In this document: positions 445 to 59,374 of the stretch, in pieces
How positions within the stretch are numbered: the first letter of the stretch is position 1
Layout: every line of letters begins with the position of its first letter
Assembly: GCA_964627255.1 (NCBI GenBank)
Contig: CAZVIN010000083.1
Location: 86,114-150,113, forward strand
DNA: 64,000 nucleotides
Direction: 5' to 3'
From: an uncultured Eubacteriales bacterium
Lineage (GTDB): Bacteria; Acidobacteriota; Aminicenantia; Aminicenantales; CALLJL01
Position numbers and translations under genes: made by a program
Notes under the pieces: generated by a model
Databases searched by the model: none
What the model was told of the DNA's origin: nothing
What the model saw: only the letters and a program-made list of their open reading frames with translations

Positions 445-2496
445 ATGCCCAAGCTTAGCTTTTTCCGAAGAGAAGCTCTTTTTAAAATGTTTCTTGACTT
501 ACCGCTCAGAACTAAATTCATTTTAAGTTTTCTCGTGGTTATTGGCTTCGGTGGTTTATTTTCGCTTTTCTTCGGGACGCGCTTAGAACATCGGACTATC
601 TTTTCCTTGGCCCAGGCTAAGGTTCGTCATGACCTGGATTCTGCCAGGACCGTTTATCAAGAAAAAATTAACGATATCCGCGACATCGTGCAGCTTAATT
701 CTATTCGTGACTCTATCCAACGAGCTCTTCTCAGCCAGGACCGCCAACTTCTTCTACGGCAGCTTGGCCGTATCAGGCAGGAATTCAAACTGGACATACT
801 AAACGTCGTTGATGCTCAAGGAATAGTCATGTTAAGAACGAGGAATCCTGAAATTTACGGCGACGAGTTGGCCTCCGACCCTATTATTTCTATAGCGCTC
901 AAAGGAGAGATAACGAATGGCACAGGGGTAGTATCGCGGGAAGTTCTGTTGCGTGAAGGCGAAGAGCTGGCATCGCAAGCCTATATTAAATTTATTCCGA
1001 CCCCGCGGGCTACTCCCAAGGCAGAAGACCACGAAGAAAATGGCCTGATGCTTTTAGCGGCTGCGCCGATATGGGATGGCCAGGGAAAGGTAGCCGGCGT
1101 TTTATATGGCGGCCTTCTTCTCAATCGTAATTACGGCATTGTCGACCGGGTTAAAGATATTGTCTTTAAAGGGGAGAGATATAAGGGAAAGGAAATCGGT
1201 ACGGTGACCATTTTCCAGCACGACCTCCGTATTTCAACCAATGTTACCGACGAATTCGGTGAGAGAGCTATTGGCACGAGGGCTTCTCAGGAAGTAGCCG
1301 AAACAGTCCTCGACCGGGGCGAGCCATGGATTGGCCGGGCTTTTGTCGTTAACCATTGGTACATTGCCGCTTACGAACCGATCCGAGACGTAACGGGAGC
1401 AATTATTGGAATGCTCTACGTCGGCATGTTGGAAAAGCCATATATCGACCTGAGGAACCGCGTTATGTTGACCTTTACTGGCCTTGCCGGACTCTGTGCC
1501 GTAATTCTGCTTGTTATCCTTTCGAGTATTACCTCAACTATTATTAACCCTTTGCAACGGATGGTTCAGGCAACTCAGAAGATTGCTCATGGCGAGCTTA
1601 ATCACAAGGTGGCGATTGACTGGCGAGATGAAATTGGCCAATTAGCTGAATCTTTCAACCGCATGACTGAAGACCTGAAAGCCGCCAATGAGAATTTAGT
1701 CCAGTGGAGTAAAACCTTAGAGAGAAAAGTCGAGGAAAGGACGCGAGAATTAAAGGAGATGCAGGATTATCTTATCCAGTCCGAAAAGCTGGCTTCCTTA
1801 GGCAAAATGGCCGCCGGCATTGCTCATGAAATCAACAATCCTTTGACCTCAATTTTAATTAACGCTCATCTTCTTTTGGAAAAACTGGCCAAGACCGAAA
1901 AAAAAGACGAATTTTACGAAAATCTTAGCCTCATTGCCGAAGAAACAGCGCGTTGTAGCCAAATAGTCCGTGGTTTACTCGAGTTTGCCCGGCAGAGTCC
2001 ACCCCAAAAGGATTTTATCGATATCAACGATTGGCTCGAAAAAACGGTGACGCTTCTGGAAAATAAAGCCTCGTTTCAAAACATCAAAATTGTTAAAAAT
2101 TTTGACCCGAACTTGCCGCTAATTCGGCTTGACCGTTCCAAAATTCAGCAGGTTTTTTGGAATCTGATGGTTAACGCCTGTGAAGCCATGCCCAGGGGAG
2201 GTCAATTAACTATTGTGACACAGTTGGCCGAAAATAAAAAGGCGATTGAAGTTAGCTTTATTGATAATGGAGTCGGTATTCCCGCCGAGAATCTCAATAA
2301 GATTTTCGACCCCTTTTTTACTACTAAAGCCAGCGGCACTGGCCTTGGCTTAGCTATCTGTTATGGCATTATTCAGCAGCATCAAGGTCTGATTGAGGTT
2401 AAAAGTGAAGTGGGGCGAGGAACGGTCTTTACTTTAATTTTACCCTTAGAAACCAAAAGTAATAATCAGATAACAGGAGGAACTTCTGATGACTGA
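445..2496 (+). CDS. Sensor histidine kinase (N-terminal TM, periplasmic Cache-like sensor, second TM, HAMP, HisKA, HATPase_c)
   Basis: H-box '[18 protein letters not shown]', N-box '[12 protein letters not shown]' and G-boxes 'DNGVGIP' / '[12 protein letters not shown]' are present. Two hydrophobic segments flank an extracellular domain of about 280 aa. The stop overlaps the start of the next gene by 8 nt. Confidence 0.85.
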
Positions 2497-3265
2497 AAAA
2501 GAGAAAAGGAAAATTCTGGTGGTTGACGATGAAATTACTGTCTGCAAAAGTATTCGCCAAGCAATACTAAGTGAGGGCCAGGAAGTGGACATGGCATTGA
2601 GCGGAGAGGAAGCCCTAACCAAAGACCGAGAGAAGCGGTATGACTTAGTTATCACCGATTTAATGATGCCAGGAATAAGCGGTCTTGACCTGTTACGGGA
2701 AATTAAAGTAGCGCATCCGGAAGTCAAAGTAGTGATGATTACTGGATATCCCACGATTAAGACAGCGGTTGAGTCAATCAAATTAGGTGCCTTTGATTAC
2801 ATCCCTAAACCATTTACGCCCGCTGAATTGAGAGCCTTAGTGGTACGAGCCCTCAAACAGGCAGAAACCGAGACTAGTACAGAAGCCACAGCGGTCGAAG
2901 CCAAAATTCCTGCTGGCTATTATTACCTCATCGGTCATACCTGGCTCAAATTAGAGACAAGTAATTATGGCCTGGTGGGAGTAACGCATGATTTTTTAAG
3001 AAGCGTCGGGATAATCATGCACCTCGAGCTTCCCAAAATTGGCGATACTCTTTCGCAAGGCGAAGTATGTGCCAAGATTACTGATGCCGACCGCTTCCAC
3101 CACCGCATCTGGTCTCCCGCTTCAGGCCGAGTAATTGAGGTAAATACTGCTTTGCTTCATGATTTCTCTTTATTGCGGCGCTCGCCCTACAACGAAGGCT
3201 ATCTATTTAAGATTGACCTCGTTGCCTTGGAGGAAGACCTAAAGGGTCTTTTGCAAGCTAAGTAG
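2489..3265 (+). CDS. Response regulator: N-terminal receiver domain fused to a C-terminal glycine-cleavage H-protein (GcvH)-like domain
   Basis: REC motifs 'ILVVDDE', 'DLVITDLMMPGISG' and 'VMITGY' are present. The C-terminal half 'GHTWLKLE...VGVTHDF...LELPKIGDTLSQGEVCAKITDADR...SPASGRVIEVNTAL...SPYNEGYLFKI' matches the GcvH fold signature (HxW, SG.V.EVN, PY..GW-like tail). Confidence 0.75.
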   Translation: MTEKEKRKILVVDDEITVCKSIRQAILSEGQEVDMALSGEEALTKDREKRYDLVITDLMMPGISGLDLLREIKVAHPEVKVVMITGYPTIKTAVESIKLGAFDYIPKPFTPAELRALVVRALKQAETETSTEATAVEAKIPAGYYYLIGHTWLKLETSNYGLVGVTHDFLRSVGIIMHLELPKIGDTLSQGEVCAKITDADRFHHRIWSPASGRVIEVNTALLHDFSLLRRSPYNEGYLFKIDLVALEEDLKGLLQAK

Positions 3266-3279
3266 CGCCTTTAATTAAA

Positions 3280-6200
3280 ATGTCACTGGCTGGGAGCCGA
3301 CCATTTTTTGATAGCGAAGAGACTTTTTCGCGAATTGTGAATTCGCTTTTAGAGGAGCTGCCCGAGCACGCCATTTTTTTCTTAAACCCGAAGGGAAATT
3401 GGCAAAAAAGCCCTCGCAGCTGGGAAGAGAGAATAAACCATGAATTCCTTTACCGCCTGAAAACAGAAGCGCCGATTGTCCGGAAAAATTTTATTCAAAT
3501 AACATATGGTTGTCTTAAGAACCCTGATTTTTTATCTCTGGTCCAAAAAATTAGCTCGCTTTGGCTGGAATCTTCATTTCCCTTAGAGAATTGGCTGACC
3601 CTGCCCCCCGAATTGCAAGAAGAGCTAAGGCCTTCCATTCTAAGTGCGGTTTGGAATCAGAAACGGTTTAGCGAGGACGCGAGGATTTTTATAAATTTTA
3701 TCCGACTCGTAACTAATATAATTTTATCCCGTTGTTTAGAACTAAATAGTACTCTTCCTGTTCCTGATTGGGACGTTCAGGTTCGGGAGGTCAAGTCATA
3801 TTTCTGGCACAGAAGACGGGCCTGGGAGGAAGGAGAAGCGGGTCGTTTTTCTTTGAAAGAAAAAGAGCTTTTTTTTGAGCTACGCCAGATTATCGCGGGT
3901 TCGCTGGCTGGCCTAATTGCTCCGATTGCGCAATTAGTGGCTGAAGAGCAAAGAATTTCCTTAATTTTAGTTAATCTTTTTCGAAAGCTTAAAACATCGT
4001 CGGACAAAGAAGAGATTTATCAGACAATTATCGAGAAATGGCGGCCAGCTATGGGAATAGTCGCCAACCTCTCTTCCTCTCTTTTCTTTCTTTCTCTTTG
4101 TCTTTTAATTCTTCCCGATATTGAGTTATCCAGCGGCCTCCAATACGCGGCCTCGGTAAACCTTAGCCTGTTTCGTGATAAACGTTCTACTGACTATTTG
4201 CTTTATGCCTTAGAAAAATTGCCGATAATCAACACTAAAATAAGGGAAAACATTATTTACACCCTTGGCTGTTTAAAGGAAGCGAGAGCTGTGCCGCTTG
4301 TAGCGCAAATTTTAGAACAACCCGATTTTTGGCCTGAGTCTGATTTAAAAGAAGCCAGAATTTGCCCGCTGCAAGAGCAAAAAGAAGAAGCTATCTGGGC
4401 CTTAGGAAAGATTGGCTTGGCCGCGGTCAAAGCAATCCCCATCCTTTCTTTTTATGCTGAACACCCCTCGGCTAAACTAAAAACTTATTTGGCCTGGGCT
4501 TTGGGTGAGATTGGTCGGGCTCAAAAGGAAAATTCTGGCGGAATAAGCGCTGACCTGCTGATAGCCCTCCTAAGACTGCTCAAGGAAAAAAATAAAGAGG
4601 TTTTCGAAGAGGCCACGAGTGCCTTGAAAAAAATTCAAATGCCCGAGTTTATCCACAATCTTTATCTTTATCATGTGGGGGCAGTCAACCTTTTGAGTTT
4701 AAAGCCAGCCACTACTGGACTTAATGAGCTTTCTGCAACCCTAAATCATTTATTGACCAAGAAGAAAAGGACAGTGATGGTGGTAACAGGAGATTCAGGG
4801 ACGGGGAAAACCTATTTTTGTCAGGTTCTGGCTAAAGGTCTGGCTGGCGTCAAGCCGGCGGAAATTCTTTATCTCATGCGAGATTCTAAAAACGGCCGAA
4901 AAATCTTTAACCGTCTTTTAGGCCTAAACTGGCTCAAGCGCTATATTGACCCGGCCTATTATCAGCCTGAATTGACTGACGAGACTACCGCTGACTCTGA
5001 GACCTTTTGGTCGAGCTTTTTAGAGACTCATAAAGATAAAAAATTCATTTTACTCGATGGTTGCCGGGACCGTCATTATTTCCAGCGAGTTGTTGACCTG
5101 TTTTATGAAAGAGGCGAACTCGACGTGGTTGTCAACTTTAGGGCCAATTTCTCCACCCGCCGTCTTAACCTCGAAGCCAGAGAGGTGGCTTTAGAAAGCG
5201 TCCGGCTTCACCTTTCTTTTCTCGAAGAACCGGCTCTGGAGGACACGTATTTCTATCAAGAGGGAAAAACGATCCTTTATGACCTGGATAATTCGGAAAA
5301 TTCGCGGCTCAATCAGGACGAAATAACCGAGCTCTTTTCTCCGAGAGTGATTCCTCGCTGGGAGGAGTTTATTCAGCTCGGCACTTTTAAATATGAACAA
5401 AACATCCCCCTTACCTCTGAAGAAAAAATAGATTCTCAAGAGGCTTCATTGCAAGCTGAGGTTTCTGAGTGGCCAGAATCTCAAGTGTCCTCGCTTCGGC
5501 CAGAAGAACAAATACTAACAATTCAGTTGAATGAAGCTCTCGCCGCCGAACCCAATTTGCTTTACATTCTACCTTTGACCAAGTTAAAGCCGGAGCGGCT
5601 TCAATTTTATGCTCAAGAACAAGTTGGCGGTGTCGATGAAGACGGTGCAATTTTTGTTCTAACTCTTCTTGACCATCGTCTCTTCCGCGTGCCACTGCAC
5701 CCGAAGCCCGCGACTTTTGCTATCCTCAATCAAGCTTTCTACTTAGTGGATGAATTGGGTGGCCTAGTGAGTGTTTCTTTGGAAAAAGAAGAAAAAATTA
5801 ATTATCGCCTCTCAGGGTCAGCTATTTCTGGTCTTGCCGCCATCCCGCCCGACTGTATTTTAGCGGCGGAAAAAAATGGCCTAATTCGGCTTTGGAACTT
5901 CGAAGAAAAGAAACAGGAGCGTTTAAACCTGGAGGTTGGGCCTATTAACTCCCTGGCCTCGGCCCCAGGAAGAAATGTCTATTTATCCACGGCGACGGAT
6001 ATTATTTGTTTAAATTGGGAAAAAGGGGTCATTAATCGGATGCGCTTAGCAGGTGAGACGCCTAAATCTATTTATACTGTATCGAAGGACAAAATTATAG
6101 CCGTGGTGAGCAGAAAAAATGACACTGAATGGGGCCTGAGGTTTATTAATTTTGATCGAGGGGTGGGCACGACTCTTTGGCTTCCTGGGACCAAAAGGAT

Positions 6201-6486
6201 AAAGACCTTAGCCCCTCTTTTAGACGGCCGGGTGGTTATTATTTGCCAACAGGATAGTAAATCATTCAATGAAGGCCCCACTCTTTTTGTTCTAAATCCA
6301 GAAGGAGATTATTTTTCATTAGCCAGAGTAAATAGACGGCCCATTGAGATAAATGACCTGCTTATTTTAGGCCCAAGAATTCTAACGTGTGGTCTCGAAT
6401 CCAACGGTCAAGGTTCTTTTCGCCTCTGGGGAAGCGAATTTTTTGTCCGAGCGGAAAGAAGTAAACTAAAAATTAAGCCCTTTTAA
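3280..6486 (+). CDS. Large multidomain protein: N-terminal helical region, HEAT/PBS-lyase-like repeats, PRK/uridine-kinase-like P-loop domain, C-terminal WD40-like beta-propeller
   Basis: HEAT-like repeats occur around 'EARAVPLVAQILEQPDF...EAIWALGKIGLAAVKAIPIL...LKTYLAWALGEIGRA' (about nt 4240-4640). Walker A 'VVTGDSGTGKTYF' (nt ~4786-4815) resembles the phosphoribulokinase/uridine-kinase motif GDSG(C/S)GK(S/T)TF. The C-terminal ~330 aa contain WD-like strands ('NGLIRLWNFEEKK', 'GSFRLWGSEFF'). The gene sits 15 nt downstream of the response regulator gene. Confidence 0.7.
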   Translation: MSLAGSRPFFDSEETFSRIVNSLLEELPEHAIFFLNPKGNWQKSPRSWEERINHEFLYRLKTEAPIVRKNFIQITYGCLKNPDFLSLVQKISSLWLESSFPLENWLTLPPELQEELRPSILSAVWNQKRFSEDARIFINFIRLVTNIILSRCLELNSTLPVPDWDVQVREVKSYFWHRRRAWEEGEAGRFSLKEKELFFELRQIIAGSLAGLIAPIAQLVAEEQRISLILVNLFRKLKTSSDKEEIYQTIIEKWRPAMGIVANLSSSLFFLSLCLLILPDIELSSGLQYAASVNLSLFRDKRSTDYLLYALEKLPIINTKIRENIIYTLGCLKEARAVPLVAQILEQPDFWPESDLKEARICPLQEQKEEAIWALGKIGLAAVKAIPILSFYAEHPSAKLKTYLAWALGEIGRAQKENSGGISADLLIALLRLLKEKNKEVFEEATSALKKIQMPEFIHNLYLYHVGAVNLLSLKPATTGLNELSATLNHLLTKKKRTVMVVTGDSGTGKTYFCQVLAKGLAGVKPAEILYLMRDSKNGRKIFNRLLGLNWLKRYIDPAYYQPELTDETTADSETFWSSFLETHKDKKFILLDGCRDRHYFQRVVDLFYERGELDVVVNFRANFSTRRLNLEAREVALESVRLHLSFLEEPALEDTYFYQEGKTILYDLDNSENSRLNQDEITELFSPRVIPRWEEFIQLGTFKYEQNIPLTSEEKIDSQEASLQAEVSEWPESQVSSLRPEEQILTIQLNEALAAEPNLLYILPLTKLKPERLQFYAQEQVGGVDEDGAIFVLTLLDHRLFRVPLHPKPATFAILNQAFYLVDELGGLVSVSLEKEEKINYRLSGSAISGLAAIPPDCILAAEKNGLIRLWNFEEKKQERLNLEVGPINSLASAPGRNVYLSTATDIICLNWEKGVINRMRLAGETPKSIYTVSKDKIIAVVSRKNDTEWGLRFINFDRGVGTTLWLPGTKRIKTLAPLLDGRVVIICQQDSKSFNEGPTLFVLNPEGDYFSLARVNRRPIEINDLLILGPRILTCGLESNGQGSFRLWGSEFFVRAERSKLKIKPF

Positions 6487-6557
6487 TTTTCATATTTTTG
6501 TAAAATAAGCTGCAAAGCTAATCACTTTGAATTTTCGAGCCCACAAGAAGGAATATT

Positions 6558-7946
6558 TTACAGAGAGCGAAATGACTCTATCTCTTCTATTGATTTTGGG
6601 ATTCTTTTGCCCAACACCCGATGCCCCTGAGGTGTGACCAAAACATCATCTTCAATCCGAATACCGCCAAAATTAATATAATCCATTACTTTCTCATAAT
6701 TAATGAAAGCGGTGTGTTTCTTTTCTTTCTTCCATTTAGCAATGAGGGCGGGAATAAAATAAATGCCAGGTTCAACTGTTAGCACAAAGCCTGGCTCTAA
6801 CTTCCTTGCCAGGCGGAGGTAAGCTAAGCCGAACTGGTCGCTGCGCTGGAAGGATTCATCATAACCCACATATTTTTCTCCCAAACCCTCCATATCATGG
6901 ACATCTAAACCGAGCATATGGCCCAAGCCATGAGGAAAGAAAAGGGCGTGGGCGCCAGCGGCAATCGCTTCTTCCACCTCGCCTTTCATCAAGCCTACAT
7001 CTTTTAGGCCCGAAGCTATAACCCGGCAGGCCTGAAGATGAACGTCTTTATAAGGAATTCCGGGTTTAATGGCCAAGATAGCTGTTTCTTGAGCTTGCAG
7101 GACTATTTCGTAAATATCTCGCTGTTTCCGGGTAAATTTCCAGCCAACGGGTAAAGTCCTGGTAATATCTGAGGCATAATGCTCCTTGGATTCAACGCCG
7201 GCATCCATAACCAGCAGTTTCCCCCTCTCTAAACGATGGCTATGCTCATGATTATGCAGAATCTGGCCATTAATGGTTAAAATTATAGGAAAAGCCTGGT
7301 GACATCCCTGGCTTAAGCCCACAGCTTCCATGGCGGCCACCAATTCCCATTCCAGCCTTCCAGGCTGAGCCATTTTCATGCCCGCAAGATACATCTCACG
7401 GGTTAAACTGAGAGCCGCCTCGATTTCCTTTACCTCTAACTCATCTTTAACGGCTCTTAAAGCCACTGTAGCTTTGATCAATTCTTCGGAGGCTCCCGTT
7501 TTGATTTCTTTGGGCGATTTTTTTAAAAGTTGGGCTAAATCAACCACCGTCTCTGAGCGATAAGGCGGGAGATAATGCACCCGACGACCAGCAGCAAGAG
7601 CTTTTTCTATGAATGGCTCTATTTCCTTAAGAGGTAGAACTTCTTTGATGCCAGCTTTTCTTGCCTTTTCAGTTAATTTGGGCTGATGGCCCATCCAGAT
7701 AATGTCTTCTAAGGAAAGTTCATTGCCAAAAATAATTTCTTTGCCTTCATCGAAATCAATCAGACCGACCAAGTCCGGACTATCTATGCCGAAAAAATAG
7801 AGGAAGGAACTATCTTGTCGGAAATGATACGTATTAGCCGGATAATTCATCGGGGCCTCTTTATTACCCCAGAAAAGAGCCAAACCCGAACCTAATTTCT
7901 TTTTTAAGGCTTCACGGCGTTGCCGATAAACTTTGCTTTCAAACAT
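6558..7946 (-). CDS. pepP: Xaa-Pro aminopeptidase / prolidase (peptidase M24B)
   Basis: M24 metal-ligand context 'HGLGHMLGLDVHD', 'VLTVEPGIYF' and 'IRIEDDVLVT' is present, with an N-terminal creatinase_N-like region. Confidence 0.85.
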   Translation of the reverse strand: MFESKVYRQRREALKKKLGSGLALFWGNKEAPMNYPANTYHFRQDSSFLYFFGIDSPDLVGLIDFDEGKEIIFGNELSLEDIIWMGHQPKLTEKARKAGIKEVLPLKEIEPFIEKALAAGRRVHYLPPYRSETVVDLAQLLKKSPKEIKTGASEELIKATVALRAVKDELEVKEIEAALSLTREMYLAGMKMAQPGRLEWELVAAMEAVGLSQGCHQAFPIILTINGQILHNHEHSHRLERGKLLVMDAGVESKEHYASDITRTLPVGWKFTRKQRDIYEIVLQAQETAILAIKPGIPYKDVHLQACRVIASGLKDVGLMKGEVEEAIAAGAHALFFPHGLGHMLGLDVHDMEGLGEKYVGYDESFQRSDQFGLAYLRLARKLEPGFVLTVEPGIYFIPALIAKWKKEKKHTAFINYEKVMDYINFGGIRIEDDVLVTPQGHRVLGKRIPKSIEEIESFRSL

Positions 7947-8128: not shown

Positions 8129-10492
8129 TTAAAAAGCTTCGTGTTCAGTGCGGCGGATAATTTCGTCCTGTAGTTCCTTGCTCAAGTCAACAAAATAATC
8201 GCTAAAACCAGCGACCCGAACAATTAGGTCTCGGTATTTTTCGGGGTAGCGCTGCGCTTCCCGCAGAGTTTCGGCTGTGACCACGTTGAGCTGAATGTGG
8301 TGGCCGTCAAGCCGGAAATAGGTTCTGATAAGATGTGCCAGGTTTTTGAGCCCGTCTTCTGTAGCTAAAAGTTGCGGCGTAAATTTTTGATTAAGCAAAG
8401 TTCCGCCTGTCCGAAGATGGTCGATCTTGGCCACGGACTTTATTACGGCTGTCGGGCCTTTGCGGTCAGCTCCCTGAACCGGGGAGACTCCCTCGGAAAG
8501 GGGTTGGTGCGCTAAGCGGCCGTCGGGAGTTGCGCCGGTCATCTTGCCAAAATAGACATGAACTGTTGTCGGTAAAAGGTTAATGCGATAAGTCCCGCCC
8601 TTCAAATTCGGCCGACCGTTAACTGCCCGGTAATAAATTTCAAATACTTGTCGGAGTAGGCTGTCGGCATAATCATTATCATTTCCATACTTAGGTGTTT
8701 TATTCAGCAGGACTTGGCGCCAGGCCTCAGAACCTTCGAAGTTACGGGACAAAAGCTCCAGAAATTCAGCCATCGAGGTCGACCGTTTATCAAAAACATG
8801 GAAGCGAAGGGCGCTTAAGGAATCAGTAATTGTGCCCATCCCAACCCCCTGGATGTAAGAGGTATTATAGCGGGCACCTCCGTCATGATAATCTTTGGCT
8901 TTGTCAATACAGTCGTCGATCAGCAAGGAAAGGAACGGGGCGGGCAGATATTCCGCATAAATCCTTTCGATAATGTTGTTGCCACGAATTTTAATATCAA
9001 TAAAATGTCTCACCTGCCGCTCGAAAGCCAACAGCAGCTCGTCGAAAGTTTTAAAATTTCTGGGGTCTCCAGTTTCCAAGCCGATTTTTTTGCCGGTCCT
9101 GGGGTCAATGCCGTTGTTCAGTGTGATTTCAAGGACCTTGGGCAGGTTAAAATATCCTGTCAAGATGTAAGCTTCCTTCCCAAAAATTCCAGCCTCCACA
9201 CAACCGCTCGCCCCACCCGACCGAGCATCTTCCAAAGATTTTCCTTGACGCAGCATTTCCTGAATGATGGCGTCGGTGTTAAAAATAGACGGCTGGCCGA
9301 AACCAGTTTTAAGGATTTTTAGAGCGCGCAACAGGAATTCGTCCGGGGTCTTTTTACTGATTTGCACCATCGAGCTGGGCTGGATGAGACGCATTTCTTC
9401 AATCACATCCAATATTAAGAAAGAAAGTTCATTGACTCCATCCGCGCCGTCATTTTTAACCCCGCCCAGATTAATCAGGCAAAAATCAGTATAGGTGGCG
9501 CTTTCTTCCGCGGTGACACCCACCTTAGGAGGAGCGGGCTGATTATTAAATTTAATCCAGAAGGCCTGGAGCAGCTCTCTCGCCTTTTCTTCCGTCAAAG
9601 TGCCTTCTTCTAACCCCTTTTTATAAAAAGGATAAAGATGCTGGTCTAAGCGGCCAGGATTAAAGGAATCCCAAGTGTTGAGTTCGGTTATAACCCCAAG
9701 ATGAACAAACCAGTAATATTGCAGAGCTTCCCAAAAATCACGGGGCGGGTTTTCGGGTACCCAAGAACAAATTTCAGCCAGGCGTTCCAACTCGGCCTTC
9801 CGCTGAGGGTCTTTTTCTTCGGCAGCTAATGCTCGGGCTTTTTGGGCATAGCGGTGGGCATACATGATGAGAGCGTCCGCCACAATTTCCATGGCCTTCA
9901 ACTCTTCCCTTTTTTTTAAGACTTCCGGGTCATTGAATTCATCCAGCCGGCGTCTTGAAGCCGCGATATCCCTTTTTAGGTCCTTAAAGCCCTTCCGGTA
10001 TATTTTATCGTCTAAGACTGTATGGCCTGGAGCCCGCTGCTCCATGAACTCGGTGAAGATGCCAGCTTCATAGGCATCTTTCCATTCCGCGGTCATCTCC
10101 GCAAAGATTTTTTCTCTGATTGTTTTCCCTTGCCAAAAAGGAATGATTTTTTCTCTATAGATTCTTTTTGTTTCCTCCTCTACCAGAAAGGGGGTTTTGC
10201 GACGGCTGTTAAGAATCTCTAAATCCTGTAAAGAATGGCAGGTGACCTCAGGATAAGTCGGAGTGGCCTTAGGAGCCGGCCCTCTTTCGCCGACAATAAG
10301 CTCGCCTTCGTCGAGCCAAAGAGCTTTTTTTTCTAAGAGATGACGAAAAGCCAGAGCTCTTTTTACCGCCGGAGAAAGGGTCGGGTCATTATTCTCTTGA
10401 TAAAATTCAGTCAAAAGCAAGGCTCTTTCGGGAGTGATATAAGGTTTAGTGTTAAGACTCTTTTCCCTGAGACGGGCAATTCTTTGATTCAT
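8129..10492 (-). CDS. Glycyl radical enzyme, PFL2/eliminase-like family (787 aa); substrate unknown
   Basis: C-terminal glycine-radical motif 'RVAGFSDYFVDL'. Thiyl-radical loop 'SGGASGCVEAGIFG' (Cys-x-Glu as in glycerol/choline/hydroxyproline-type eliminases, not the CC of pyruvate formate-lyase). Size and layout match the PFL2 family. Confidence 0.85.
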   Translation of the reverse strand: MNQRIARLREKSLNTKPYITPERALLLTEFYQENNDPTLSPAVKRALAFRHLLEKKALWLDEGELIVGERGPAPKATPTYPEVTCHSLQDLEILNSRRKTPFLVEEETKRIYREKIIPFWQGKTIREKIFAEMTAEWKDAYEAGIFTEFMEQRAPGHTVLDDKIYRKGFKDLKRDIAASRRRLDEFNDPEVLKKREELKAMEIVADALIMYAHRYAQKARALAAEEKDPQRKAELERLAEICSWVPENPPRDFWEALQYYWFVHLGVITELNTWDSFNPGRLDQHLYPFYKKGLEEGTLTEEKARELLQAFWIKFNNQPAPPKVGVTAEESATYTDFCLINLGGVKNDGADGVNELSFLILDVIEEMRLIQPSSMVQISKKTPDEFLLRALKILKTGFGQPSIFNTDAIIQEMLRQGKSLEDARSGGASGCVEAGIFGKEAYILTGYFNLPKVLEITLNNGIDPRTGKKIGLETGDPRNFKTFDELLLAFERQVRHFIDIKIRGNNIIERIYAEYLPAPFLSLLIDDCIDKAKDYHDGGARYNTSYIQGVGMGTITDSLSALRFHVFDKRSTSMAEFLELLSRNFEGSEAWRQVLLNKTPKYGNDNDYADSLLRQVFEIYYRAVNGRPNLKGGTYRINLLPTTVHVYFGKMTGATPDGRLAHQPLSEGVSPVQGADRKGPTAVIKSVAKIDHLRTGGTLLNQKFTPQLLATEDGLKNLAHLIRTYFRLDGHHIQLNVVTAETLREAQRYPEKYRDLIVRVAGFSDYFVDLSKELQDEIIRRTEHEAF

Positions 10493-10494
10493 CC

Positions 10495-11403
10495 TTAACC
10501 TCCTATGGAGATAGGCAATTTAGTTTTATTAAAAAAATGGGCGATTTTTTCCATGGATTCAAGCGAAGGCTTTTTAAGCTCAGCTAATTGATAACTGCGG
10601 CCCAAGCGGGTGTATTTTTCCTTACCAAAAGAATGGTAAGGCAAAAGCTCTATGCCCTTAATCGGGGGGAGAGAGGAAATAAAAGAGGCCATCTGAACTA
10701 AATTGGCTTCATCATCATTGATTGAGGGAACGACGGGAATGCGAATAACGACTTTATCTGTGAGCCGAGCTAAGCTTATCAGGTTTTCTAATATTAGTTC
10801 ATTTCTTAAACCTGTAGCTAAGCGGTGTCTTTCCGGGTCCATTAATTTCAGGTCATAAAGAAAGAGGTCGACCAACGTCCAAATTCGCTTGAAAACTTTA
10901 AAGGGGGCATAGCCTGAGGTATCAACTGTGGTTGAGAGCCGATTTTTCTTGCTGAGTTCGAGAAGTTCCTCTAAGAACTCAGCTTGAAGAAGCGGTTCAC
11001 CTCCAGAGAAGGTCACGCCGCCCCCAGATTCCTCATAAAACGGAGAATCCTTCATGACCTCGGCCATTACTTCAGCAGCCGTCATTTTCTTGCCTACTAT
11101 TTCCAGGGCTTCTGAGGGGCAAATCTCGGCACAGAGGCCACAACAATCGCAGCGTTGCGCCTCGATTAGGGGCGAGACGCCGGGTTTAGAGATTGCCCCT
11201 TGAGGGCATTTTTCTAAACAGAGCTGACAGCCATCAAGGCAGCGGTTGAGTCGAAGCATAAGCTCTGGTCCGATTTTTTGGCCCTCTGGATTATGGCACC
11301 AGAGGCAGCGAAGGGGGCAACCTTTGAAAAAAATAGTTGTTCGAATTCCAGGTCCGTCGTGGAGGGCGTACTTTTTGATGTCGAACACAATCCCCTGAGT
11401 CAA
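10495..11403 (-). CDS. Glycyl-radical enzyme activating enzyme (radical SAM, with extra ferredoxin-like Cys clusters)
   Basis: 'CPLRCLWCHNPE' CxxxCxxC radical-SAM motif, plus 'CxxCxxxC' ferredoxin-type clusters ('CDCCGLCAEICP'). 302 aa. Lies 2 nt upstream of the glycyl radical enzyme on the same strand. Confidence 0.85.
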   Translation of the reverse strand: MTQGIVFDIKKYALHDGPGIRTTIFFKGCPLRCLWCHNPEGQKIGPELMLRLNRCLDGCQLCLEKCPQGAISKPGVSPLIEAQRCDCCGLCAEICPSEALEIVGKKMTAAEVMAEVMKDSPFYEESGGGVTFSGGEPLLQAEFLEELLELSKKNRLSTTVDTSGYAPFKVFKRIWTLVDLFLYDLKLMDPERHRLATGLRNELILENLISLARLTDKVVIRIPVVPSINDDEANLVQMASFISSLPPIKGIELLPYHSFGKEKYTRLGRSYQLAELKKPSLESMEKIAHFFNKTKLPISIGG

Positions 11404-12092
11404 AGTTCACCCCCAGTCGCGGTTTTTTCTACCGGGTAATATTTTAAGATATAACTTTTTTGAACTTCGAAGGACCAGTGGACGTCCCGAATAAATCGGG
11501 CGGCCGCCTCATAATCCTTTCGTTGCAGAAAACCGAGCAGATGTTCATGCTCCCTTATTGAGGCTTCCTCCCATTCCCGGATATAGGCTGGCTGACGGGG
11601 AAAATCGTAAAGTCTTTTTTTGAGGGTGTTGACGATGCGATTTAATTCGGGATTATGACAACGGGATAAATAAACATTATGAAATTCAAGATTACGCTCA
11701 TAATAGGTATCAAAGTCGTCTCGGCTGAGAGCTTTTTTCATTCCTTCAACAAGCTTTAACATGGTTTCTAAATCTTTTTCGCTGATGCTAGGACCAGCTC
11801 TCAGAATAGCCAAGCTTTCCAAGGCACCGATGACCTCATAGGCATTTTTAATCTCCTCAAGAGTGAGCGGGTTGACTATTACCCCCCGCCGTGGTTTGAT
11901 CGTCACAAAGTTTTCCATAGCTAATTGCAGAAGAGCATCTCTTAAGGGAGTCTTGCTGATTCCCAGCGATTGGGCTGTTTCCTCCATCTTGATTTCTTCA
12001 CCTGGTTTTAGCCTACCGCGGCGTAACTGGAGCCGGAGATAATCGTAGACCTGTTCTTTGAGAGATTTAAAAGTTAGCCGAGGATTACGCAT
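11400..12092 (-). CDS. GntR-family transcriptional regulator (FadR/FCD-type C-terminal domain)
   Basis: N-terminal winged HTH 'EETAQSLGISKTPLRDALLQLAMENFVTIKPRRGVIV'. Helical C-terminal FCD-like domain. ATGA overlap with the activase gene. Confidence 0.8.
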   Translation of the reverse strand: MRNPRLTFKSLKEQVYDYLRLQLRRGRLKPGEEIKMEETAQSLGISKTPLRDALLQLAMENFVTIKPRRGVIVNPLTLEEIKNAYEVIGALESLAILRAGPSISEKDLETMLKLVEGMKKALSRDDFDTYYERNLEFHNVYLSRCHNPELNRIVNTLKKRLYDFPRQPAYIREWEEASIREHEHLLGFLQRKDYEAAARFIRDVHWSFEVQKSYILKYYPVEKTATGGEL

Positions 12093-12783: not shown

Positions 12784-12858
<75 letters not shown>

Positions 12859-35171: not shown

Positions 35172-35265
<94 letters not shown>

Positions 35266-38335: not shown

Positions 38336-38429
<94 letters not shown>

Positions 38430-59157: not shown

Positions 59158-59245
59158 GCCGAAGTGGTGGAATTGGTAGACACGCTAGCTTGAGGGGCTA
59201 GTTCCCGTTAATATGGGAGTCGGGGTTCGAGTCCCCGCTTCGGCA
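59158..59245 (+). tRNA. tRNA-Leu (GAG)
   Basis: GCCGAAGTGGTGGAATTGGTAGACACGCTAGCTTGAGGGGCTAG-(long variable arm)-CGGGGTTCGAGTCCCCGCTTCGGCA. Anticodon loop TTGAGGG. Confidence 0.85.
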
Positions 59246-59374
59246 CTCCTGCTTAGAGCCCTCCTATTGTAAGCAAATAATAGGTTCTTGACCTTTCTTA
59301 TTTTTCGGCAAACTCTTGATAACCATAAAGGCCCTTATGATTACCATTCACTTATTTGTCTTATTAACAATTGA

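Follow-up and report, generated by a model that had tools for sequence, protein, structure and literature searches.

A HEAT, P-loop and WD40 protein encoded with a two-component system in a conserved gene cassette of uncultured bacteria

What might a bacterial protein do in which a nucleotide-binding P-loop domain is set between a helical HEAT/ARM solenoid and a WD40 propeller? This question is raised by a gene for a 1068-residue protein (here called the large gene and the large protein) on contig CAZVIN010000083.1 of an uncultured Eubacteriales bacterium placed by GTDB in the Aminicenantales. The stretch analyzed, referred to as the window, comprises 64,000 nucleotides (positions 86,114 to 150,113 of the contig). 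A preliminary description of the gene had proposed a metabolite kinase of the PRK, uridine kinase or pantothenate kinase class, or a nucleoside triphosphate (NTP)-dependent scaffold. It did not mention the operon with a sensor kinase and a response regulator, in which a receiver (REC) domain is joined to a GcvH-like domain, and this linkage is the most informative fact about the gene. We give about an even chance to the reading that the large protein is a nucleotide-dependent effector or scaffold, serving as the output device of this two-component system. In bacterial signalling, least is understood about response regulators that lack a DNA-binding output.

The kinase-regulator-large gene cassette

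The kinase and regulator genes overlap by 8 nucleotides, the stop codon of the regulator gene is followed after 14 nucleotides by the large gene, and all three genes lie on the same strand (Table 1). This order is kept in homologues of 40-50% identity with differing flanks. Gene neighbourhoods were compared in 80 species-representative loci, the denominators being the loci with enough upstream DNA. Of 71 loci, 70 have a REC domain directly upstream of the large gene and 69 a GcvH-like domain, and the kinase gene was present upstream in all 41 loci having at least 4.7 kb of upstream DNA. When the flanking open reading frames (ORFs) of the 80 loci were clustered, no fourth gene was common to more than 18 loci. 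A scan for promoters and terminators returned no more sites than in shuffled sequence. The large gene is the third gene of a conserved three-gene cassette, and its genetic coupling to the other two is near-obligate.

The histidine kinase starts with a transmembrane segment (residues ~23-45), an extracytoplasmic Cache domain and a second transmembrane segment (~338-371), followed by the HAMP, HisKA and HATPase_c domains; the best NCBIfam match of its core is AtoS. The REC domain of the regulator (Pfam Response_reg, 2.1e-30) matches NtrC, ZraR and AtoC best. In an alignment of 69 cassette regulator sequences, the phospho-acceptor Asp was conserved in 66 of the 66 regulators aligned at this site. 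A kinase with HisKA and HATPase_c thus adjoins a REC domain with a conserved Asp, and the pair is a two-component system.

The second half of the regulator differs from a classical output. Pfam detects no DNA-binding domain in the regulator, and assigns the region after REC to GCV_H (6.1e-17, 62 bits versus a cut-off of 22.2). The NCBIfam GcvH models give 67-69 bits, under their cut-offs of 115-117. The fold-defining GcvH residues of the regulator align with those of E. coli GcvH. The column aligned to the lipoyl-lysine K65 of E. coli GcvH is occupied by G (24 sequences), K (10), N (9), Q (8), R (5) or H (5), and positions near it hold conserved D, H, R, W, S/T and P residues. Because the lipoyl-lysine position is variable, the output domain is a GcvH fold that does not serve as a lipoyl carrier. 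With the GcvH-like domain alone as query, 14 homologues were returned, mostly short proteins from ~1-kb contigs, and our literature search found no paper on a REC-GcvH regulator.

Two loci are exceptions, of which only L057 breaks the cassette rule. In L057, the large-protein homologue (4929-7483) is split into ORFs of 598 and 269 residues without a kinase or regulator upstream, and is a pseudogene or an assembly error. In L075, from a Stahlbacteria metagenome-assembled genome (MAG), the regulator (4597-4962) consists of a REC domain only (121 residues) and overlaps the large gene by 4 nucleotides; the GcvH-like domain is therefore dispensable in this lineage. In Zixibacteria bacterium SM23_81, one cassette contains two REC-GcvH regulators in tandem (L070, 3241-4041 and 4166-4963), and a second cassette lies on another contig (L062). 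In four distant lineages, a gene of the acetyl-CoA hydrolase/transferase family (~431 residues) is inserted between kinase and regulator. This insertion is the only metabolic hint at the locus, and it points to short-chain acyl-CoA or carboxylates.

Relatives of the large protein were present in 97 genomes when one genome per GTDB species was scanned. The carriers are mostly Aminicenantes, or MAGs with placeholder labels whose copies are 40-44% identical to Aminicenantes copies. Other carriers are Zixibacteria, WOR-3, Stahlbacteria, Edwardsbacteria, Eisenbacteria and MAGs labelled Gemmatimonadota. Many carriers labelled 'uncultured Eubacteriales' resemble the Aminicenantes copies. A complete kinase-regulator-large gene cassette was also seen on a 5.9-kb contig (L064, DXJL01000014.1) binned as Candidatus Heimdallarchaeota, which is probably a mis-binned bacterial contig.

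Architecture and nucleotide site of the large protein

The large gene is a single unbroken ORF from the ATG at 3280 to the stop codon at 6484-6486, and no frameshift signatures were found in it. Searching 5.8 billion proteins returned 192 homologues. The 120 listed are mostly 1011-1079 residues long and co-linear with the query over 97-100% of its length at 38-83% identity, and they have either no name or the label 'hypothetical', 'HEAT repeat protein' or 'WD40 repeat protein'. We also extracted and aligned 65 full-length ORFs from independent genomes, and a protein identical to the window copy is present on three contigs from different samples. A fusion artefact or a pseudogene, produced by frameshift or misassembly, would be an alternative explanation for the uncommon domain combination. 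Nothing in the window speaks for it, and one related locus, L057, has a disrupted copy; the intact ORF and the co-linear homologues refute it, and its probability is practically nil.

Three classes of domains are present: a HEAT/ARM α-solenoid (residues 1-455), a P-loop NTPase domain (~481-700) and a seven-bladed WD40 propeller (705-1050). The AlphaFold2 (AF2) model of the full-length protein has a mean predicted local distance difference test score (pLDDT) of 79.5, with helices in 13-465 and a five-stranded α/β domain in 499-670. The N-terminal 285 residues are the least conserved part of the protein (column identity 0.29-0.65) and have no match in Pfam, NCBIfam or the PDB. The repeats that follow are recognized by Pfam HEAT_2 at residues 390-458 (34 bits versus a cut-off of 27.7) and by designed armadillo proteins in the PDB at residues 363-480 (E = 8.6e-6). 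All of 37 family members contain HEAT_2, and 32 of them HEAT_PBS. As tandem helical-hairpin repeats that match the profile, they belong to the HEAT/ARM class.

By sequence, the C-terminal third of the window copy is weakly WD40-like (RACK1, E = 5e-4), and WD40-type propeller families match 23-24 of 37 homologues. In the AF2 model, this region forms 28 strands arranged in seven four-stranded blades over residues 760-1050 (pLDDT 82-92), and it is a WD40-type propeller. The combination of HEAT repeats, nucleotide-binding domain and propeller described earlier was borne out by Pfam, the PDB matches and the model. The same holds for its cytoplasmic location. No N-terminal hydrophobic signal or signal peptide was found, and the sole hydrophobic stretch (257-287) is a confidently modelled, buried solenoid helix that carries charged residues in the family consensus. 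The possibility of a membrane protein was rejected on this basis. The large protein is real, conserved, cytoplasmic and intact. NCBIfam and PADLOC assign it to no family, no Pfam or NCBIfam model covers its N-terminal 285 residues or its central domain, and we found no paper on a HEAT/P-loop/WD40 family; the family was previously uncharacterized.

We then looked at conservation in an alignment of 66 sequences in which the overall identity falls to 27%. Residues 455-700 are the most conserved by far, with a column identity of 0.64-0.81 compared to 0.3-0.6 elsewhere. At least 97% identity was found for the stretch G504-C514, which includes Walker A, and for Y531, R534 and D535 directly after β2 (529-533). 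The same level was reached by D593, G594, D597, Y600 and F601 at or after the end of β3 ('ILLDGCRD'), by D615, V618, F620 and R621 in β4, by S625, R628, N630, L631, E632, R634 and E635 after β4, and by D670, N671, S672 and R676 at the end of β5. Within the segment between β4 and β5, the residues R621, S625, R628, N630, E632, R634 and E635 are invariant. The same is true of G504-C514, Y531, R534, D535, D593, G594, D597, D670, N671, S672 and R676. The linker between solenoid and P-loop domain has the invariant residues P455, F457, H459, L461-Y464, G467 and A468. The nucleotide site is intact, with Walker A, the Walker B Asp, an Arg-Asp pair just after β2 and an Arg/Glu-rich lid. Since dense conserved charged residues surround this intact site, the sequences suggest that the domain is functional, either as an enzyme or as a switch.

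When residues 455-705 were modelled separately by AF2 with 120 sequences, the core had a pLDDT of 85-94. The elements follow each other in the order β1, P-loop, α-helix, β2, three helices (537-583), β3 ('ILLDG'), α-helix, β4, a 43-residue segment and β5. The same order is found in nucleoside monophosphate (NMP)-type kinases such as adenylate kinase, where the acceptor binds to the helical insert and the lid is formed by the segment that follows β4. By analogy, the segment 621-664 would sit at the position of the LID of NMP kinases. R534 and D535 after β2, together with R621, R628 and R634 of the lid, may take part in phosphotransfer. The two most conserved stretches of the protein, 455-480 and 621-664, are those left at a pLDDT of 30-40 in both AF2 models (30-36 for the linker in the full-length and the domain-only model). 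This would fit mobile elements that become ordered on a substrate or partner.

Which family does the P-loop domain belong to? According to the preliminary description, it is a small-molecule kinase domain of the PRK, uridine kinase or pantothenate kinase type. On this view, the large protein would be a self-contained regulated kinase with the HEAT and WD40 regions as regulatory appendages. The Pfam PRK profile (PF00485) matched 9 of 21 members (best E = 0.008), covering only positions 1-29 of 196, that is β1 and Walker A, with 14-16 bits versus a cut-off of 22. Phmmer and profile searches of all PDB sequences with the central domain yielded nothing below E = 0.006; the best matches, midasin (E = 0.006) and KaiC (E = 0.035), were restricted to the Walker A region, and PRK followed at E = 0.66. 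Profile alignment with hhalign covered 26 columns around Walker A for E. coli uridine kinase Udk (26% probability) and 30 columns around the P-loop for E. coli adenylate kinase Adk. Alignment of Walker B and lid residues to PRK or uridine kinase, on which the earlier assignment depended, failed, as all alignments were confined to Walker A. In structural comparison, too, other proteins match better than PRK, uridine kinase or pantothenate kinase. A further argument against a free-standing enzyme is that the gene is almost always found in an operon with a two-component system, the regulator of which lacks its own output. We consider such a self-contained kinase quite unlikely.

The kinase-type fold itself stood up to comparison. 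Foldseek with the 455-705 model returned adenylate kinases 1, 2 and 4, thymidylate, UMP/CMP and adenosine 5'-phosphosulfate (APS) kinases, PSTK and SIMIBI GTPases (E = 2e-4 to 7e-3). Pfam AAA_18 aligned from Walker A to β4 (profile positions 1-112 of 128) in 21 of 21 members (best E = 1.5e-8), but with 24-28 bits the domain missed the curated cut-off of 29.4. Walker A has the form GxxxxGK[ST], the Walker B Asp D593 ends a hydrophobic strand, and the structural neighbours are kinases and SIMIBI GTPases. We conclude that the domain is kinase-like and belongs to the kinase-GTPase class, and that its membership in the PRK, uridine kinase or pantothenate kinase families is not demonstrable. When 1.84 billion cluster representatives were searched by HMMER with the profile of the domain, 66 proteins were found at E <= 0.001, each of them a full-length member of the large-protein family or a fragment of one. 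The P-loop domain is therefore family-specific, and was found only within this architecture, which we mapped to 97 species genomes.

A different reading takes the large protein as a switch that works like the signal transduction ATPases with numerous domains (STAND), following the logic of Apaf-1 or NACHT-WD40 proteins. In this case, the propeller would sense a ligand, nucleotide exchange would lead to oligomerization, and the solenoid would signal, with no phosphotransfer. A helical module at the N-terminus, a P-loop and a WD40 region at the C-terminus succeed one another as in classical STAND proteins, and the motifs 'LIILDG(C/W)xD' and 'hhV(N/K/H)FR' resemble the NACHT Walker B (hhhhDGhDE) and sensor-1. 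Pfam NACHT matched weakly from Walker A to Walker B (profile positions 3-90 of 167, 15-20 bits versus a cut-off of 26.7, E = 5e-4 to 3e-3), and nSTAND3, nSTAND5 and NB-ARC matched more weakly still. However, the structural neighbours are not ATPases of the additional strand, catalytic glutamate (ASCE) division, and no STAND or AAA+ chains were among the top structural matches. The gap from β4 to the propeller is only ~85 residues, which leaves no room for helical and winged-helix modules. A STAND protein combines an ASCE domain with a helical HD1/ARC1 and a winged-helix module and scores above the profile cut-off; the large protein does not. We judge this reading to be unlikely. A role as a defence system was rejected separately: PADLOC gave no defence-system match for the large protein, the best hit having E = 0.009 in the Walker A region only.

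A candidate output device of the two-component system

How could the three proteins work together? In the scheme to which we give an even chance, the membrane histidine kinase would sense an extracytoplasmic ligand via its Cache domain and phosphorylate the regulator, so that the signal would flow from the kinase towards the large protein. The sole output of the regulator would be the non-lipoylated GcvH-fold domain, and with only this domain as output, the regulator could not act on DNA. It may instead act by protein-protein contact on the large protein encoded 14 nucleotides downstream. The latter would be a cytoplasmic scaffold-enzyme in which the solenoid and the propeller, as docking platforms, flank the P-loop domain. 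Docking of the phosphorylated regulator would most likely switch an ATP-dependent phosphotransfer by the P-loop domain on or off; a conformational switch of an NTPase is the less likely alternative. The propeller or the solenoid would hold the target, a substrate or client, and the acceptor might be either a macromolecule (protein or polynucleotide) or a small molecule.

The same operon linkage would also be expected if the large protein were an accessory or connector, which scaffolds or gates the phosphotransfer between kinase and regulator, or feeds a second cytoplasmic signal to the kinase with NTP binding as a co-signal. The presence of two docking platforms fits such a function, and so does the lineage in which the GcvH-like domain is dispensable and REC is kept. 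On the other hand, the regulator would then remain without an identifiable output, and the extreme conservation of charged residues at the nucleotide site is more like that of an enzyme active site than of a passive scaffold. A connector is in our view improbable.

Several points weigh against the large protein as output device. Its physical contact with the regulator is something we infer, and no homologue listed carries a REC or GcvH-like fusion, the maximum length being 1079 residues. Co-transcription would be explained just as well by a large protein that works beside the two-component system or upstream of it. In addition, 'DGxxD' of Walker B and 'xFR' of β4 are similar to STAND motifs. 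The roles given to the lid and to the 455-480 motif are guesses, because both were modelled at a pLDDT of 30-40.

Taken further, the cassette may represent a new type of two-component output, in which a phosphorylated REC-GcvH-like regulator controls, in trans, a HEAT/WD40-embedded P-loop kinase. This kinase would modify a protein, the 5'-OH of an RNA or a metabolite related to acyl-CoA. Such an output would be similar to Vps15 and other eukaryote-like scaffolds, and its occurrence would be limited to Aminicenantes and candidate phyla related to the Fibrobacteres-Chlorobi-Bacteroidetes (FCB) group. We propose this more specific version tentatively, and hold it to be rather doubtful.

If the large protein is the effector, the cassette would link a His-Asp phosphorelay to an ATP-dependent enzyme or scaffold in a new way. 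The P-loop kinase-fold family, with its very narrow distribution, would be new as well, and so would the use of a non-lipoylated GcvH fold. The whole cassette, with Cache kinase, REC-GcvH-like regulator and a protein of ~1050 residues, is conserved across several uncultured phyla, and supplies three defined proteins of uncultivable organisms for heterologous expression. In addition, the attractive but unsupported annotation as PRK or uridine-kinase-like is corrected.

Outside the cassette, the window contains a glycyl radical cluster that is convergent with it. This cluster also adjoins a homologue of 49% identity (L003), but not those in L004-L006, and thus reflects lineage synteny. The coordinates of all features are collected in Table 1.

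Table 1. Features of the cassette, of the large protein and of the neighbouring DNA (window coordinates unless a locus is named)
Feature	Coordinates	Strand	Residues or size	Description
Sensor histidine kinase, first cassette gene	445..2496	+	683 residues	Pfam: Cache (sCache_3_3 / Cache_3-Cache_2), HAMP, HisKA, HATPase_c
Response regulator	2489..3265	+	258 residues	REC, residues 9-118 (2513-2842); GcvH-like, residues 145-257 (2921-3259)
Large gene, third of the cassette	3280..6486	+	1068 residues	HEAT / P-loop / WD40 protein
N-terminal all-helical region	3280..4134	+	1-285	AF2 helices 13-277, pLDDT mostly 80-92
HEAT / ARM / PBS-lyase-type repeats	4135..4644	+	286-455	Pfam HEAT_2, designed ARM proteins
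Linker/motif 'PEFxHxLYLYHxGA...GL'	4642..4719	+	455-480	Highly conserved; not placed by AF2
Family-specific P-loop NTPase domain	4720..5379	+	481-700	Kinase-GTPase-class (NMP-kinase-like) fold
Walker A GDSGTGKT	4789..4812	+	504-511	Invariant in 120 and in 66 sequences
Walker B strand and motif 'ILLDGCRD'	5044..5070	+	589-597	D593, G594, D597 invariant; model strand 588-592
Lid-like segment between β4 and β5	5140..5271	+	621-664	pLDDT 31-39 in both models
WD40-type β-propeller	5392..6429	+	705-1050	Seven four-stranded blades 760-1050; short strands 707-745 before
C-terminal helix	6436..6474	+	1053-1065	Conserved; consensus 'WGSEFxVRTELSKLxIKP'
Acetyl-CoA hydrolase/transferase insertions	L061 2473-3768; L067 2827-4125; L076 2806-4137; L078 1-618			
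Glycyl radical cluster	8129-12092	-	787, 302 and 230 residues	PFL-like enzyme, radical-SAM activase, GntR/FCD regulator
tRNA genes	12785-12858; 35172-35265; 38338-38428; 59158-59246			Met-CAT, Ser-GGA, Ser-CGA, Leu-GAG; unrelated to cassette

Comparison with known systems

The kinds to which the cassette belongs are known, namely two-component systems with a protein partner as output and multidomain P-loop signalling proteins. The cassette itself is well defined, phylogenetically coherent and found in uncultured lineages only.

For the P-loop domain, the closest folds are the NMP-kinase-like P-loop kinases, comprising adenylate, thymidylate and UMP/CMP kinases, AAA_18, APS kinase, PSTK and the Clp1/Grc3 polynucleotide kinases. 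None of these families reaches its Pfam cut-off, however, and with identities of 10-20% none stands out. The large protein also differs from them in that its P-loop domain is set between a 455-residue solenoid and a propeller. Compared to PRK and uridine kinase (PF00485), the 'EG' Walker B and the 'RD..ERGR' lid of that family were recovered by no alignment method used.

With STAND NTPases that have WD40 sensors, such as Apaf-1 and bacterial or fungal NACHT-WD40 proteins, the large protein shares the domain order and a superficial likeness of the Walker B and β4 motifs. Unlike them, it is of the kinase-GTPase and not the ASCE division, lacks the helical and winged-helix modules, and is fixed in a two-component operon. 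The large gene has no defence-island context, and no PADLOC match was found for it.

The best match of the propeller is Vps15 (PIK3R4), the eukaryotic kinase-HEAT-WD40 scaffold of the PI3KC3 complexes, with 11-12% identity. In Vps15, a Hanks-type kinase or pseudokinase is located at the N-terminus, whereas the large protein has its P-loop domain between solenoid and propeller. The likeness is an architectural analogy and not homology.

The regulator can be compared to known proteins. Its GcvH-like domain scores above the Pfam GCV_H cut-off, like the H protein of the glycine cleavage system, but it is fused to REC, and the lipoyl-lysine is not conserved. Its REC domain best matches NtrC, ZraR and AtoC, the systems in which a phosphorylated REC controls a P-loop ATPase. 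There, the AAA+ ATPase of the sigma-54 activator is fused in cis and followed by a DNA-binding domain. In the cassette, by contrast, REC carries a GcvH-like domain, and the P-loop protein is of another fold class and encoded by a separate gene. By analogy with NtrC-type systems, we infer that the REC domain of the cassette may control its P-loop protein in trans.

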